In this document: positions 32,853 through 55,298 of the stretch, piece by piece
How positions within the stretch are numbered: position 1 is the first letter of the stretch
How the letters are laid out: the number at the start of each line of letters is the position of its first letter
Source of the DNA: Candidatus Terraquivivens yellowstonensis
GTDB taxonomy: Archaea; Thermoproteota; Nitrososphaeria_A; Caldarchaeales; Wolframiiraptoraceae
DNA: 64,000 nt
Reading direction: 5' to 3'
NCBI GenBank assembly: GCA_023539445.1
Contig: JAKCEW010000004.1
Location: forward strand, 16,741-80,740
Translations under genes and position numbers: made by a program
Notes under the pieces: model-generated
Told to the model about the DNA's origin: nothing
Databases searched by the model: none
Seen by the model: only the letters and a program-made list of their open reading frames with translations

Positions 32853-33892
32853 GAAAGTTCAGGGACAAAGATTATGTTGAAACGTGTGAAGGATGGTTCT
32901 TTTGTGTAGTGGGCGAAAGTCACCCCCACGATAGACTCGTAGCATATTTGAAATACTTGCCTGGTGATGGGGCGTGGTCTAGACAAGGAAAGAGTTTCAA
33001 AAGAACGATATGCGCTTATTCAATGCAAGAATTGGTTAACACGATAGATTTTCTCAAGAAGAATAAACCCGAATATGTTTTTTATGATGAAACGGTAGGT
33101 GCTGAGATGTCTTGTGTTCCATTAACCAGAATTTCAAAATACTACAGGTGCGACGAGAGACTACGTGAGATAGTAGAAAGTGATAGGTTGGATGAACTCG
33201 AGAGTAAAACTAAGGAATTAGTGGAGTCAATAAGCGAGGTTTCTGGTGTAGACATTAAAAACATGGGCATCACTGGTTCCATACTTTTAAAAATACATCA
33301 CCCAAAGTCGGACATAGATCTTGTCGTGTACGGGAAAAACAATTTTTGGAAAGCTTTACAAAGTTTACACTCAATTAACGATGTTAAACCTCTTGATGAG
33401 TTAAGGTTAAATGAGTGGGTTAGTAAGGCAAGCGCGAAGTATCCACTTTCGACGAATACGTTATCAAAGCTGGCAAAGTTGTTGAGGAATAAATACATTT
33501 ACAAAGGGACGCCTTTCTCGATTCACGGTATCAGATTGGATGAAGAAGTGATAAGAAGCTATGGTGAGGTTAAATATCGTAGTTTAGGTCTCGCCAAAAT
33601 AAGAGCAGTAATTTCCGATGCATCAGAATCCTGTTTCACACCAGCTATTTACAGAGTATCTAACGTTGAGACTGAACAGAAACATGCTAAGGACGTGGAG
33701 GCGTTAGCAAGTTTTGACGGAACATTCACTGCGATGTTTGATGAAGGTACGCGTATAGAGGCTTTTGGAAAAGTCGAGCTCGTTATAGACCTTAGAGGTG
33801 GACGTTCATTTAAGTGGTTACTAATCGGTACCTTTGAGGGGATGGGTAGAGAGTATGTTATTCCGACCGAAGGATTGTCTCTATCTCGCTAA
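32849..33892 (+). CDS. Pol-beta-superfamily nucleotidyltransferase, paralog B (same architecture as paralog A)
   Basis: 347 aa from TTG overlapping the upstream stop (TTGA); GITGSILLKIHHPKSDIDLVVYG motif; shared N-terminal (GESHPHDRLVAY vs KGVSHPPKGVIAV) and C-terminal (ISDASE.CFTPAIY vs VSDASKGIFTPCCY) blocks with paralog A. Confidence 0.5.
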   Translation: MRKFRDKDYVETCEGWFFCVVGESHPHDRLVAYLKYLPGDGAWSRQGKSFKRTICAYSMQELVNTIDFLKKNKPEYVFYDETVGAEMSCVPLTRISKYYRCDERLREIVESDRLDELESKTKELVESISEVSGVDIKNMGITGSILLKIHHPKSDIDLVVYGKNNFWKALQSLHSINDVKPLDELRLNEWVSKASAKYPLSTNTLSKLAKLLRNKYIYKGTPFSIHGIRLDEEVIRSYGEVKYRSLGLAKIRAVISDASESCFTPAIYRVSNVETEQKHAKDVEALASFDGTFTAMFDEGTRIEAFGKVELVIDLRGGRSFKWLLIGTFEGMGREYVIPTEGLSLSR

Positions 33893-35570
33893 GAACCCTT
33901 CTCTGTATCCATACTGGCGTCCAAGGTATTAGGAGTGATGCGTACTTGCCTTTAACAACATTTTCTAGAACACTCTTGTCCCCGATGGATAAGTATCCGG
34001 ATAAAATAGCGCGTGCATACTCCACCGATTTATTTGCATCGAGATAATGCCCTATGTAAAGCACAACTTCTGTCAGGTCCCATGCCTTGTCACCGTTAAA
34101 CGAAGCCTGTTCTAAGTCCGTTATGTAGACCTTATCCCCAGATATTATGAAGTTTTCAGGTTTGCAGTCTCCCAACGTTATATCGTATTGGTGAATTTTT
34201 GCCAATTCTCTCCCGGCCATAAATGCCGCCTTCTCTTGCATATTTTGTTCGTTTTTTGACATCCATATCTGCATGAGGTCTTGTCCCTCAATGAATTTCT
34301 GGAACAATAACTTTTTCTTCCAATTTATGTGGTATATGTCGGCTGTGTTAAAGCCAAGTTCCGCGAGTTTGTTAACGAAGTAAACTTCATTGGAAAGTCT
34401 GACCTCGGCCACGACTGAAAAGTTCTTCACACCAACAGTCCAAATCCTAGCCGCCACCCACTTTAGGTCCGTCCAGTTCAAGTATTTCTTCACGAAGATC
34501 TTCTCTTCTGTATCCTTTGTGTGGATCGTGACTATGTAAGTCGAGTTAAGCATACGGCCTATCTTCCTTATGGATATCTGGCTTCTATCGGCGTCATAAA
34601 CTCGTTCAACAAAATCCAAGATGTCGAAACGTTCTTTTAATTGTTGTTTCCCTATGGCGGTTTTAATGAAGACGTATTCCTCTGGGTCAGGAAGGTCGTT
34701 TTCAGTCTTGTAAAAGAGTGACCGTTTGATCTTTGAGTATAGCTCCTCAGCTATGATGCGCGGATTAAAGCGTCCTGCATAACCGTGCACAAGATACATC
34801 TTAAACATTCTTTCGAAGTCGTAAAGTTTCTTAGCGAACGTACTTGTCTGGTTTAGGGTTGAAAGTACGAACTTGTTGGATAAGCGATAATACTCGCCAT
34901 CCTTGACCAATAAACCCTCAGATTCCAGCTCCGTGAGAGCGGCGTAAAATCCTTTCATGCAAATTTCTGTGTTGACCTTCTTATGGGGACCGGAAAATAT
35001 CTTCGAATAACTGTAGCGCGCCGGCGGATATATCAGGGCCCTTCTTCTCAACTTCTCGAAAAGAAAGTACTCGGGCTGTATCAAAAGTTCACTCGCCGCC
35101 ATCCTATGCTCTAGTATCAGATTATCGCATAGCTCCAGCACAACGTTCTTCTTGTAGGTCTTGTCGAATTCTTCCAAGAGCGCAGCACCTACAATAGGAT
35201 AAAATGGTGTTAGGAGCCTTCCTGCCACGAATTCTCCTAAGGAGCCGTTTGTCACGTCACTCCTCATAGCATTTTCATCAACAGCTAAAACGGATACTGT
35301 AGGCTCAAAATTTCTTAGATAATAGTACTTTATATCTTCCTTGAAATCTTTCACGACGCATAACACATCTAAATCGCTACCCTTTGAAGAATAGCCAGAA
35401 AGTTGCGAGCCATAGATGCAGAGACACGATATGTCATCCTCCTTGAAGATGCTTCTTGAGGCTTCTAGCGCTGTTTGCGTGAATAGCTTTAGCCTATCCT
35501 CTGGAATCGCATACATTCCCCTTATAAATCGGTTACGCTCAAGGTTTAAACTTTTATTCTCGTTCAACAT
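33858..35570 (-). CDS. Fusion protein: N-terminal Pol-beta-type nucleotidyltransferase (KNTase-like) + C-terminal eukaryotic-type protein-kinase-like domain
   Basis: 570 aa; N-terminal IYGSQLSGYSSKGSDLDVLCVV NTase motif; C-terminal kinase-like catalytic loop HQYDITLGDCKPENFII (HRDxKPEN-like), metal-binding ITDLEQ (DFG-like) and a VKK beta3-Lys candidate. Confidence 0.5.
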   Translation of the reverse strand: MLNENKSLNLERNRFIRGMYAIPEDRLKLFTQTALEASRSIFKEDDISCLCIYGSQLSGYSSKGSDLDVLCVVKDFKEDIKYYYLRNFEPTVSVLAVDENAMRSDVTNGSLGEFVAGRLLTPFYPIVGAALLEEFDKTYKKNVVLELCDNLILEHRMAASELLIQPEYFLFEKLRRRALIYPPARYSYSKIFSGPHKKVNTEICMKGFYAALTELESEGLLVKDGEYYRLSNKFVLSTLNQTSTFAKKLYDFERMFKMYLVHGYAGRFNPRIIAEELYSKIKRSLFYKTENDLPDPEEYVFIKTAIGKQQLKERFDILDFVERVYDADRSQISIRKIGRMLNSTYIVTIHTKDTEEKIFVKKYLNWTDLKWVAARIWTVGVKNFSVVAEVRLSNEVYFVNKLAELGFNTADIYHINWKKKLLFQKFIEGQDLMQIWMSKNEQNMQEKAAFMAGRELAKIHQYDITLGDCKPENFIISGDKVYITDLEQASFNGDKAWDLTEVVLYIGHYLDANKSVEYARAILSGYLSIGDKSVLENVVKGKYASLLIPWTPVWIQRRVLSEIETILRSE

Positions 35571-52066: not shown

Positions 52067-52408
52067 ATGCAATCAAAGCTACTTGGTAGTTTGGGTCTTG
52101 ATGTGAAGGAGCAGAATGTAGCTAAAGAGGTGCTAATCCGTCTGCCAGATAAGGATGTGGTAATAAAAGAGCCGACCGTCGTGGTTTTACAAGTTGGTGA
52201 TGAAAAAGTCTATCAAATCATAGGTGGCGAAATTTCTGAACAGAAAGTTATAGAAAGCGAAACTGGAGCCCCAACCTATGAGCCGACAGCAGATGACATA
52301 ACAATCGTGGCACTCCAAGCAGGCGTATCTGAGGAGGAGGCAAGGAGGGCACTTATAGAGGCGGGCGGAGATTTGGCAAAGGCCATCCTCTTATTAAAGT
52401 CTAAATGA
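52067..52408 (+). CDS. nac: Nascent polypeptide-associated complex protein (NAC alpha, with C-terminal UBA)
   Basis: 113 aa; NAC domain followed by UBA-like ...EEEARRALIEAGGDLAKAILLL. Confidence 0.75.
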   Translation: MQSKLLGSLGLDVKEQNVAKEVLIRLPDKDVVIKEPTVVVLQVGDEKVYQIIGGEISEQKVIESETGAPTYEPTADDITIVALQAGVSEEEARRALIEAGGDLAKAILLLKSK

Positions 52409-54359
52409 ATTTTAAGGAATCGCAACCGGACTCTAAGTACTTCTTGGCAAGGTCAACAGATTCTTGAATTTCCTTATCTTTTGAGGGGCTAGATAGCATC
52501 ACCATATAACCCCCGTTCAAAACTTTTGCTACTTTTGCCTCAAACTGTAATCTATCTTCTTGTGGCATTTTTATATCATAAGGCACTATGGTAGTCGAAT
52601 ATGCAAAATTAGACGTAACGGGATAGAAAGATAATCCCGATATGGTCTTAAAGCCGAACCTGTCTATATCGGACTTGGCCATCCTCTTAGAGGATTGTGG
52701 TGGACATACGTTAGCGATCCCTATTTGAAAGTCCTTTTTGGAGCCCTTTAGCGCCAGCTTGACCATCTCCCTCAGCACATTCAACAAAATATCTGGGGAG
52801 CTTGATGTCGGATACTCTCCAGTTAAACACTTTATTGCCTCGAATAAACCACACGGTGATACGATGAAATGATGCTTAATACTTACGTTCCCATGAAGCA
52901 TGTTCGTTAGGTTCATCTTCTTTGTGAAGGCGGTTATAATGAGTTGCATCGTCCTTCTCACAGATTCCATGAATTCTTCCTCGTTTCCCGCAGACTGAAG
53001 TGCCAACCTTGGTACATTCATCGCTGCAACACCGCACAGAAAGCTTTCGGCATTTTCTGGATTCTTAATGGAGATCTTGTATCCGTTGCTTGCTAAGACC
53101 TCCGATTTTGAACCAGTTGTGAATATTAACTCAAGGCCTTCCTTGGAAATGTAATGTGGGGGCGCTTTCTCGATCAAATCTTTGCCTACCACGATGGATA
53201 TGTTATTCCTCTGGTGCTCGTTAAATGCATCTATCAAGTCTTCTGCATGTTCTAAGTTATTAGCAGCATTAAGGACAAACTTGTGTTCTTCAAATGTACT
53301 TATGGAGGAGATTTTCATGAGTGTTGATGCAAACTGCTTTGATAATTTTTTATTCGAAATAATGTCGCTAAGATTGTACAAAAGAAACTCCTTTTCTACA
53401 ATAAACATGTCCTCCATGAGATTTGCTACAAGTGCCTCGCATGTACCTAAACCTTCAACTTTATTTAGTAGGTCAGCATCGTACGCCTTACCATAAACCG
53501 ACACAACCCATGATTCCAGAAAACAGATGTCTATTAGTCCGGAAAGGTATGCGTCGGCTACGTTTCTTGGCAAAACGTTGAGTAACATGTATTCCTTCAA
53601 AACAGAGTTTGCCGCTGCCTTCATGACGGCATTTGTCCCACCTTGCTTTGAGGCATTCTTGATTGTCTGGGTAACATCGTAGATCGGCATACCAACTCTC
53701 GTCAGTTTGTGCCTATACTTCTCTAAACCCTGATCTATTAAAACGGAATTTACAAGCTCCCTAATCAAGGGTGCGGAGAGGTACTCTATTTTAAGATCGA
53801 GAAGTTTTTCTTCCACGCTGGATGCAACTTTATGGGCGAGTTTTGCTGGCATGCCTGCCTCCTTAACCAGAGCGTTCACTATCTTGTTCTTATCAAAAGC
53901 CTCTATCGAACATTCACTACGTCTGACGATCAGTAAATCGGAGCCTGCTAGCATCTTTTTCGCTTGCTCGATCACTTCCAACATTGTCCTGCCGCTATGT
54001 GAAAGCTCGTACAGTTTTGTCTTCTCGTTAATTTTTATGAGCTTCGAGTTGAGTAGCTTCTTTAGGTGATAGGAAAACTTTCCTGCATCTTTCTGGGGAT
54101 TCATACCCACCGAGCGTATCAATTCTGTGTAGTTCATGTCGTGCTTTGAAAGTTGCTTCAACATCTCAATCCTTATAGGTGACGCTAACGCATCCAATAT
54201 CCTATCCAACGTCCGTCCTTCTTCGTCAACGAATATGAGAACCGCCCCCTTAAGCTGCGTTACATTGTAGGCGATAATTAAGATAAAGGTTATCGGTGCC
54301 TCATACGTTAGTACGTTTAAATATTTATTTGTAATACGATTTTGGGCATGGTTAGACAT
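52401..54359 (-). CDS. Anaerobic (class III) ribonucleotide-reductase-like protein with N-terminal ArsR-type wHTH and ATP-cone; start uncertain
   Basis: ArsR/SmtB-like wHTH (LDALASPIRIEMLKQL...FSYHLKKLLNSKLI), ATP-cone (LLIVRRSECSIEAFDKNKIVNALV), NrdD-like core (ADAYLSGLIDICFLESW), C-terminal GGY but no Cys4 ribbon. The ATG at 54357-54359 overlaps the argF ATG (54348) on the opposite strand, so the real start may be the TTG near 54209. Confidence 0.5.
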   Translation of the reverse strand: MSNHAQNRITNKYLNVLTYEAPITFILIIAYNVTQLKGAVLIFVDEEGRTLDRILDALASPIRIEMLKQLSKHDMNYTELIRSVGMNPQKDAGKFSYHLKKLLNSKLIKINEKTKLYELSHSGRTMLEVIEQAKKMLAGSDLLIVRRSECSIEAFDKNKIVNALVKEAGMPAKLAHKVASSVEEKLLDLKIEYLSAPLIRELVNSVLIDQGLEKYRHKLTRVGMPIYDVTQTIKNASKQGGTNAVMKAAANSVLKEYMLLNVLPRNVADAYLSGLIDICFLESWVVSVYGKAYDADLLNKVEGLGTCEALVANLMEDMFIVEKEFLLYNLSDIISNKKLSKQFASTLMKISSISTFEEHKFVLNAANNLEHAEDLIDAFNEHQRNNISIVVGKDLIEKAPPHYISKEGLELIFTTGSKSEVLASNGYKISIKNPENAESFLCGVAAMNVPRLALQSAGNEEEFMESVRRTMQLIITAFTKKMNLTNMLHGNVSIKHHFIVSPCGLFEAIKCLTGEYPTSSSPDILLNVLREMVKLALKGSKKDFQIGIANVCPPQSSKRMAKSDIDRFGFKTISGLSFYPVTSNFAYSTTIVPYDIKMPQEDRLQFEAKVAKVLNGGYMVMLSSPSKDKEIQESVDLAKKYLESGCDSLKFI

Positions 54360-55298
54360 TTCTTGGATTTTGAAGGGTACGCTGCGGAAGAGGTCCTTTA
54401 CATACTGGATATGGCTATAAATTTTAAGAAAAAAGGGTATCCAGATAGCAAACCATTGTCCGGCAAATCTATAGCTTTGATTTTTGAGAAGCCATCTACA
54501 AGAACTAGGGTATCCTTCCAAGTAGCTATAGCAAAGCTTGGTGGTGAGAGCATACCGCTAAGCGTCAGCGAGATGCAGTTGAGTAGAGGAGAGCCTATAA
54601 GCGATACCATGCGCGTTCTATCGGATTACGTGAATGCTGTCGTCGCAAGGGTCTATAAACATGAGATGCTCTCCGAGATGGTAAAGTATAGTTCAGTTCC
54701 GGTAATCAACGCATTAAGCGACAAATTCCATCCTTGTCAAGCACTTGCTGATATGATGACTATCAAGGAGCTAAAGGGCAACATCTATGGGGTGAAGGTG
54801 GCTTACGTCGGCGATGGAAATAACGTTTGTAATTCTCTTATCCAAGCATGCTCGCTGCTCGGTGCCAGAATATCTGTAGCATCCCCTAAGGAGTATCAGC
54901 CACCAGAAGATGTTGTAGCACAGGCGAAGGAGTGGGGAAAGAGGTCCGGAGGTACGATAGAACTAACGGAGAATCCTGAGGATGCTGTAAGGGATGCTGA
55001 TGTTGTCTATACTGACGTATTCGTTTCCATGGGTCAGGAAGATGAAAGGGAAAGAAGGTTGAAGGTTTTTTATCCGAAGTACAAAGTGACAGAGAGGTTA
55101 ATGTCCTTAGCAAAGCCGGATGCGATCTTCATGCATTGTTTGCCAGCGCATAGAGGTGAAGAGGTAGAAGCATCCGTGATTGATGGAAAAAGGTCTGCGG
55201 TTTGGCAACAGGCCGCTAATAGGTTACATACTGAGGCAGCATTGTTATTGTATCTACTTCAAGATGGAAAAAAGTTTAATCCAAGCCTTTCCGTTTAG
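54348..55298 (+). CDS. argF: Ornithine carbamoyltransferase
   Basis: STRTR carbamoyl-phosphate motif, HCLPAHRGEE ornithine-binding motif (OTC-type rather than ATCase HPLP). Confidence 0.85.
   Translation: MVRHFLDFEGYAAEEVLYILDMAINFKKKGYPDSKPLSGKSIALIFEKPSTRTRVSFQVAIAKLGGESIPLSVSEMQLSRGEPISDTMRVLSDYVNAVVARVYKHEMLSEMVKYSSVPVINALSDKFHPCQALADMMTIKELKGNIYGVKVAYVGDGNNVCNSLIQACSLLGARISVASPKEYQPPEDVVAQAKEWGKRSGGTIELTENPEDAVRDADVVYTDVFVSMGQEDERERRLKVFYPKYKVTERLMSLAKPDAIFMHCLPAHRGEEVEASVIDGKRSAVWQQAANRLHTEAALLLYLLQDGKKFNPSLSV

Follow-up and report, generated by a model that had tools for sequence, protein, structure and literature searches.

We analyzed a 64,000-nucleotide stretch of the genome of Candidatus Terraquivivens yellowstonensis (contig JAKCEW010000004.1, positions 16,741 to 80,740; hereafter the window, with coordinates counted from its first letter). 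Our focus was a gene on the (-) strand whose predicted product, hereafter the window protein, joins an ArsR/SmtB-type winged helix-turn-helix (wHTH), an ATP-cone and a long body resembling NrdD, the class III or anaerobic ribonucleotide reductase (RNR). The gene, which we call the regulator gene in keeping with the function proposed below, is divergent from argF (54348..55298, (+) strand), which encodes ornithine carbamoyltransferase (NCBIfam TIGR00658, 411 bits against a cut-off of 281). An initial annotation of the window had offered two readings of the protein: a transcription regulator that senses nucleotides and derives from a degenerate anaerobic RNR, or a class III RNR that has diverged strongly.

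Gene model and domain architecture

The open reading frame (ORF) on the (-) strand ends at 52401, as had been annotated. At its 5' side it can be extended to an ATG at 54357..54359, which would give it an overlap of 12 nt with argF, whose ATG is at 54348-54350. Both ATGs are located where the initial annotation had placed them, and it had left two options, overlapping 5' ends or a TTG start near 54209. To choose between them we compared the window with four orthologous loci (L006-L009), whose proteins are 73–89% identical to the window protein. All four orthologues carry in-frame stop codons 14–26 codons 5' of a conserved TTG, and between ATG 54359 and TTG 54209 the alignment contains indels of 1 and 2 bases, not multiples of three, which break the upstream frame. 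TTG 54209 and the codons that follow it are conserved. Directly 5' of this TTG lies a purine-rich stretch, AAGGACGGACG (54210..54220, (-) strand), which resembles a Shine-Dalgarno sequence and may act as one; GGAG or AGGA occurs at the same place in five orthologues. Finally, most close homologues of the window protein in the protein collection are also 602 amino acids long. Because of the orthologue stops, the frame-breaking indels, the purine-rich stretch and the length of the homologues, we assign the start of the gene to the TTG at 54209-54207, giving a coding sequence of 52401..54209 ((-) strand, stop codon 52403-52401) and a predicted protein of 602 amino acids. The ATG at 54359, and with it the overlap of the two 5' ends, is ruled out by the stops and the non-triplet indels, leaving the TTG option; on this gene model the apparent overlap with argF is an artefact of choosing the ATG, and the two divergent genes are separated by a spacer of 138 nt (54210-54347).

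The three parts described in the initial annotation are each borne out by Pfam, with DUF7347, ATP-cone and NRDD all exceeding their gathering scores. The N-terminal wHTH (residues 1-88; 53946..54209, (-) strand) matches DUF7347 at 37.9 bits (cut-off 27.6) and, more weakly, the ArsR-type models HTH_5 and HTH_20; its recognition-helix motif FSYHLKKL lies at 54054-54077. The ATP-cone (residues ~92-170; 53700..53936, (-) strand), which contains VRRS..E.FDKNKI, scores 33.8 bits against a cut-off of 25.8. The remainder, residues 176-602 (52404..53684, (-) strand), is an NrdD-like alpha/beta-barrel body that lacks the catalytic residues and the C-terminal zinc ribbon and glycyl-radical domain of NrdD, and its NRDD match (E=3e-15) covers profile positions 272-495 of 562 only. 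A profile search, which had been proposed as a check on RNR homology, confirmed it: a profile built from 60 family members matched the class III RNR 9d3x (E=1e-22, profile positions 217-574), the Thermotoga maritima enzyme 4coi (E=1.6e-15) and the phage T4 enzyme 1h78 (E=2e-10), and its N-terminus matched ArsR and NmtR. In an AlphaFold2 model of the window protein (mean predicted local distance difference test score 84.8, predicted template modelling score 0.71), the predicted wHTH superposes on DNA-binding ArsR/SmtB repressors, and the window protein has the ten-stranded alpha/beta barrel homologous to NrdD.

Individual motifs agree with these assignments. The motifs LSGLID and LNGGYMV, previously singled out as NrdD-like, align with 'ERGDIHYHDL' and 'ANGGFICYG' of E. 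coli NrdD, and a further NrdD signature is retained as 'MNVPRLALQS' (52992..53021, (-) strand; 'LNLPRIALE' in NrdD), in which Asn398 is invariant in the family. In the ATP-cone, R96 and E103 are invariant in the family and K109 nearly so; they align with the K/R, E and K that bind nucleotide in the E. coli NrdD cone, indicating that the cone of the window protein keeps its nucleotide-binding residues. In the recognition helix, AGKFSYHL does not vary among family members, and neither does the ArsR-type motif (S/A)YHLKxL. Four His, one of which falls in this helix, and no Cys are found in residues 1-90.

The wHTH shares its fold and a recognition-helix motif, xSxHLxxL, with ArsR/SmtB proteins such as CzrA, SmtB, CadC and NmtR, but the window protein falls below the family cut-offs (NCBIfam HTH_metalloreg, 29.9 against 55; Pfam HTH_5, 20.6 against 22). 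It is also six times larger than these proteins, and where they sense through a metal site it carries an ATP-cone and an RNR relic.

A family of inactive NrdD paralogues

Proteins of this architecture form a large family, in answer to the question whether the arrangement of wHTH, ATP-cone and NrdD-like body is conserved in relatives. A protein search returned 862 relatives of the same Pfam architecture, and relatives were found in at least 566 GTDB species (one genome scanned per species) and on at least 583 metagenome stretches when metagenome contigs were scanned. DUF7347, ATP-cone and NRDD follow one another in this order in most of 120 listed homologues, with the NRDD match missing in many short forms. 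Residues 1-240, which take in the wHTH, the ATP-cone and the first part of the barrel, match 140 clusters (50% identity) at E<=1e-30, nearly all of 530–800 amino acids; the few matches of 160–350 amino acids are most likely fragments on short contigs and give no support for a minimal standalone form of wHTH and ATP-cone. The family is distributed over Nitrososphaeria, Caldarchaeales and Bathyarchaeia. Among the matches listed, the nearest named organisms are Ca. Terraquivivens, and the Joint Genome Institute contig Ga0080004_1231933 is 100% identical to the window. Full-text searches of the literature found no publication on the DUF7347/ATP-cone/NrdD architecture.

Members fall into three groups by length. 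Short forms (~535–620 amino acids) occur in Terraquivivens, Caldarchaeum, Wolframiiraptor, Geocrenenecus and their relatives and, like the window protein, end before the zinc ribbon. Long forms (~700–775 amino acids) occur in Bathyarchaeia and some Nitrososphaeria. A third, Ca. Gagatemarchaeum-like group (~660–720 amino acids) has kept the ribbon and lacks the radical Gly.

To assess catalytic capacity, we used MAFFT to align 186 family members (95 long and 91 short) to NrdD of E. coli and to seven complete NrdDs from archaea, and examined the columns of the finger-loop thiyl-radical Cys (E. coli C384, T4 C290) and of the second active-site Cys (E. coli C175, T4 C79). At the first of these the window protein has Tyr377 (codon 53079..53081, (-) strand), reading 'SNGYKIS' where E. 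coli NrdD reads 'PMGCRSF'. The same column in the 91 short forms holds mainly Tyr (42), Phe (25) and Leu (19), with four His and a single Cys, and the Cys is kept in ~20/95 long forms. The equivalent of C175 is Gly in the window protein and Cys in only 1/186 members. The initial annotation had seen neither a Cys4 zinc ribbon nor a canonical RxCGY context, and the alignment agrees: the window protein terminates upstream of both the ribbon and the RxxGY glycyl-radical loop. More broadly, the whole C-terminal domain is absent from the short forms, with Cys at all four aligned ribbon columns in just two of the 91. Long forms retain the Cys4 ribbon in 92/95 cases, and none of the 95 has the radical Gly motif RxxG[YF]; they usually read 'FSRMSAKYLP' where true NrdDs read 'WSRVTGYYQ'. 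All catalytic residues and the ribbon are present in 7/7 true NrdDs adjacent to family genes.

These data bear on the possibility that the protein is an active, highly divergent class III (or other) RNR with an extra winged helix. In its favor, homology and a shared fold with NrdD are real, public names often read 'anaerobic ribonucleoside-triphosphate reductase', and some long forms keep the finger-loop Cys noted above. The homology to class III RNRs (Streptococcus thermophilus 9d3x, T. maritima 4u3e/4coi and the archaeal neighbours) spans the ATP-cone and barrel and includes the motifs LPRxVADAHLSGxI(H/D)L, NxPR, GLxEA and GG(Y/H/F). However, NrdD has a thiyl Cys, a second Cys, a radical Gly and a zinc ribbon, whereas the window protein has none of these and carries an additional N-terminal wHTH. 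The NCBIfam NrdD equivalog model TIGR02487 gives it 64.3 bits, far below the cut-off of 326.35, compared with 521 bits for a true neighbouring NrdD. No homologue of NrdG, NrdA or NrdB was found by phmmer among the window ORFs (ORFs of at least 80 amino acids for NrdG), as had been noted for the cognate activase, and the 64-kb window contains no RNR gene. In addition, a complete nrdD lies directly beside the long form in 27 of 73 long-form loci, and the radical Gly is missing from every long form. Because several defining features of NrdD were looked for and are absent, we conclude that the window protein is not a functional NrdD; judged by its sequence, it cannot be an RNR. The divergent-enzyme reading of the initial annotation is thus abandoned, and we regard an active RNR as very improbable.

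A functionless, decaying nrdD remnant is less probable still, to the point of being negligible. Its appeal is that the catalytic residues and the C-terminal domain have been lost and that the central barrel is the least conserved part of the protein. Yet the ORF is intact and of equal length in five orthologues, and the architecture is conserved across hundreds of species. We also calculated the ratio of nonsynonymous to synonymous substitution rates (dN/dS) against four orthologues. It is 0.08–0.10 overall, 0–0.03 in the ATP-cone (95–100% identical), ~0.04 in the wHTH and 0.06–0.24 in the barrel segments, and so no higher than 0.24 anywhere. The ATP-cone is the most constrained part. All three parts are under purifying selection; the gene is functional, not decaying.

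The origin of the family can be read from its neighbours. One long form (L053) is 34% identical over 681 amino acids to the NrdD encoded directly downstream (E=3e-110), and with this NrdD the window protein shares 36% identity over its residues 95-262. These identities mark the family as a paralogue of this archaeal NrdD lineage in which, as the sequences indicate, a wHTH was added and the radical machinery disappeared. The lineage of the window has additionally lost the C-terminal zinc ribbon and glycyl-radical domain while keeping the ATP-cone and most of the barrel. The steps of this change are present in living lineages, as an active NrdD, a long dead form with the zinc ribbon and a short form without it. 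At another locus (L051:3298-6177), the true NrdD beside the family gene is 959 amino acids long, with an intein-like insertion of ~230 amino acids after the 'IHDLEYFG..PFC' region.

Public names for family members are inconsistent, and include 'anaerobic ribonucleoside-triphosphate reductase', 'ArsR family transcriptional regulator', 'ATP cone domain-containing protein', 'helix-turn-helix domain-containing protein' and 'hypothetical protein'. Current annotations mislabel many family members as the enzyme. Such misnaming would wrongly assign a class III RNR, and hence anaerobic synthesis of deoxyribonucleoside triphosphates (dNTPs), to genomes that may lack NrdD.

RNR neighbours and a proposed regulatory function

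We compared gene neighbourhoods in 161 loci and counted adjacent RNR genes in the 73 long-form loci whose sequence extends at least 1200 nt downstream. An RNR gene lies directly downstream on the same strand in 28 of these, nrdD in 27 and nrdJ in one. In the 27 Bathyarchaeia loci, nrdD is usually preceded by a small glutaredoxin-like gene (grx-nrdD). A class II-type RNR is also directly downstream in four third-group loci (L167, L171, L172 and L173), alongside the nrdJ locus L077. The neighbours pass the NCBIfam models for their enzymes, NrdD with 521 bits (cut-off 326) and NrdJ with 535 bits (cut-off 400).

Between the regulator gene and grx-nrdD we found a 15-nt element, TACARAATTTTATAC, with the form TACA(G/A)AATTTTATAC, which we call the nrdD box; CTAAAAAnTTAAA follows 8 nt further on. 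With at most one mismatch, the box is present in 17/28 loci with a downstream RNR gene and in 0/45 without one. Across the first 1.18 Mb of loci, matches with 0–1 mismatch occur solely directly downstream of a family gene, and 22 distinct sites share the consensus. The box may be an operator, or it may be an nrdD-specific promoter element (a transcription factor B recognition element, BRE, or TATA box). Loci with the box are L053, L068, L069, L078-L080, L083, L085 and L106-L160 (for example L068:12293-12307).

Taken together, the RNR homology, the conserved ATP-cone residues, the ArsR-type wHTH and the RNR adjacency support the regulator reading of the initial annotation. Neither outcome named there as refuting it was observed, the first being a full set of catalytic RNR residues with a cognate activase or B12 site, the second a lack of RNR homology in profile searches. 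We consider it probable that the window protein is an RNR-derived, NrdR-like transcription factor that senses nucleotides, a catalytically dead paralogue of NrdD. We infer its DNA binding and the genes it regulates. The NrdD-like body would dimerise as RNRs do and present two winged helices to a repeat-type operator. Binding of ATP or dATP at the ATP-cone would alter how the protein oligomerises or where the wHTH sits, and thereby DNA binding; the barrel might bind dNTPs or ribonucleoside triphosphates (NTPs) as well, at what is left of its effector or substrate sites. RNR genes, and perhaps nearby genes of nucleotide metabolism, would in this way be transcribed according to the nucleotide pool, which would make the protein a functional analogue of bacterial NrdR.

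In bacteria the control of RNR transcription, exerted by NrdR, has been thoroughly described. NrdR is the bacterial repressor of RNR genes and is rare in archaea (PMC9110341, PMC12176259); its nucleotide state alters its oligomer and its DNA binding in principle as we propose here (PMC9110341). The window protein is homologous to NrdR over the ATP-cone only, to which it adds a dead RNR body of 430 amino acids. NrdR joins the cone to a zinc ribbon, whereas the window protein has an ArsR-type winged helix, and its residues 1-90 lack a CxxC pair; given a DNA-binding domain of another type, it is not an NrdR. We found no tandem palindromes resembling NrdR boxes here, and the family is archaeal.

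Enzyme folds are used as ligand sensors in trigger enzymes such as PutA and BirA, where the fold informs a transcription factor acting on the same pathway. The proposed regulator differs from these in that its enzyme portion is dead and catalysis is left to another, complete paralogue. It would be a clear example of how an enzyme can become a transcription factor that senses a ligand.

Several observations weigh against this function or loosen its link to RNR. The nrdD box is not found in the window, where a search allowing 3 mismatches gave 8 matches (4.7 expected). As for autoregulation through the box, it is at best weakly enriched upstream of regulator genes (6/85, against 23/1533 control windows that are mostly coding sequence). 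It could be a BRE or TATA element rather than an operator. In none of 44 short-form loci, the type to which the window belongs, is an RNR gene adjacent. Inherited synteny may also account for part of the adjacency seen in other loci, as the order of the NAC, PUA, HflX and ribosomal-protein genes is conserved too. Since neither the short-form loci nor the window offers an adjacent RNR gene, the RNR link for the window protein rests on homology to the long forms; it is from these relatives, by sequence comparison, that we infer RNR regulation by the window protein. The candidate targets visible in the window are two promoters only, that of the regulator gene itself and that of the divergent argF.

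A further alternative is a role without DNA binding, in which the protein is a non-catalytic RNR partner or some other scaffold that binds nucleotides, and its winged helix makes protein contacts. Pairing between RNR subunits and their paralogues does occur, the zinc ribbon and most of the NrdD surface persist in the long forms, and the operator sites remain candidates only. We nevertheless find this role improbable, given an ArsR-type recognition-helix motif that is invariant across the family and a wHTH that superposes on repressors that bind DNA. Short forms, moreover, occur without an adjacent RNR, and the RNRs found beside family members, NrdD and NrdJ, are unrelated in quaternary type.

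A nucleotide-sensing transcription factor thus remains our preferred reading. In a bolder version, about which we are more doubtful than convinced, the whole family would be the archaeal counterpart of NrdR: a sensor of the dNTP pool, derived by duplication of NrdD, that reads ATP/dATP with its ATP-cone and dNTPs or NTPs with the relic specificity and substrate sites of its dead barrel, and controls RNR of any class, possibly also pyrBI and argF. In any case the family offers a specific candidate, open to testing, for the way archaea control their dNTP supply, combining an ATP-cone and a DNA-binding domain with a dead copy of the neighbouring enzyme.

Palindromes were also seen near members linked to nrdJ or belonging to the third group. 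A perfect palindrome, TTGACTACAAGTCAA, lies upstream of nrdJ at L077:12060-12095, and TTTGACC-N12-GGTCAAA lies upstream of the regulator gene in L170 (upstream of 817), with TTGAC(T/C) half-sites near other members of the group. We discarded these half-sites near nrdJ-linked members as evidence because they are too short and too few.

The argF spacer and flanking genes

The spacer between the regulator gene and argF contains three conserved elements besides the purine-rich stretch. The TATA-box-like element CCTTTATCTTAA (54278..54289, (-) strand), ~70 nt upstream of the TTG and conserved in five orthologues, is the probable promoter of the regulator gene. Closer to the start, 22–40 nt upstream of the TTG, lies a block, GGGGGCGGTTCTCATATTC (54231..54249, (-) strand), in the presumed 5' leader. 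The region is non-coding, and within the block GGGGGCG and CATATTC are invariant in five orthologues, with 3–4 variable bases between them. The pattern GGGGGCG..CTCATATTC occurs once exactly in the window; the sole other match has 3 mismatches, and 6/100 shuffles equalled the matches. RNA structure in the block is unconvincing (RNAalifold consensus of -7.5 kcal/mol, with 2 covarying pairs).

The third element, nearest to argF, is an AT-rich imperfect palindrome, TAGTACGTTTAAATATTTATTTGTAATA (54309..54336, not assigned to a strand; inverted repeat I1, 73% complementary), which is conserved in orthologues and is a candidate operator. It holds a TATA-like box ~26 nt upstream of the argF ATG. Because the ATG follows the conserved TATA-like box at this distance, the spacer suggests that the argF transcript is leaderless and that the control region is shared by the two divergent genes. 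The pattern TAnTAC-N14-18-GTAnTA occurs once in 64 kb, compared with 0.5 expected by shuffling, and the 64 kb contain no further exact or conserved copy of the 28-mer, of this pattern or of the leader block, so that these searches brought up no additional regulon members.

This arrangement invites a different target for the transcription factor, namely carbamoyl-phosphate metabolism, with the protein tying arginine and pyrimidine synthesis to the ATP/dATP pool through argF and, in relatives, pyrBI. The divergent argF pairing is kept in 13 short-form loci with spacers of 26–142 nt, the conserved palindrome covers the TATA-like box of argF, and pyrB lies just beyond the regulator or RNR gene, in convergent orientation, in 26 of the long-form loci among the first 81 loci as well as in L170 and L171/L172. 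The conserved palindrome may, however, simply be the argF TATA box. Being convergent, pyrB shares no promoter with the regulator gene, and argF and pyrB encode distinct enzymes and differ in orientation, a pattern that resembles synteny more than a regulon. Same-strand adjacency to an RNR gene with a specific box is the stronger link. We therefore hold this target to be rather unlikely, and favor nucleotide sensing linked to RNR genes.

The order of regulator gene, grx-nrdD or nrdJ, and convergent pyrB recurs in Bathyarchaeia and in the Gagatemarchaeum-like group, and pyrI stands beside pyrB in L003/L004 and L170, where this was checked. In the lineage of the window a different carbamoyltransferase gene, argF, is on the other side and divergent.

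Elsewhere in the window, an ORF of 570 amino acids (33858-35570, (-) strand) has no Pfam match at E<=1e-5. On the 3' side of the regulator gene, a gene for a 113-amino-acid NAC/UBA-like protein (52067-52408, (+) strand) converges on it, and the 3' ends of the two genes overlap by 8 nt. The downstream neighbours of the short forms encode NAC, a PUA-domain protein, HflX and an MBF1-like helix-turn-helix protein, in an order conserved to Caldarchaeales.

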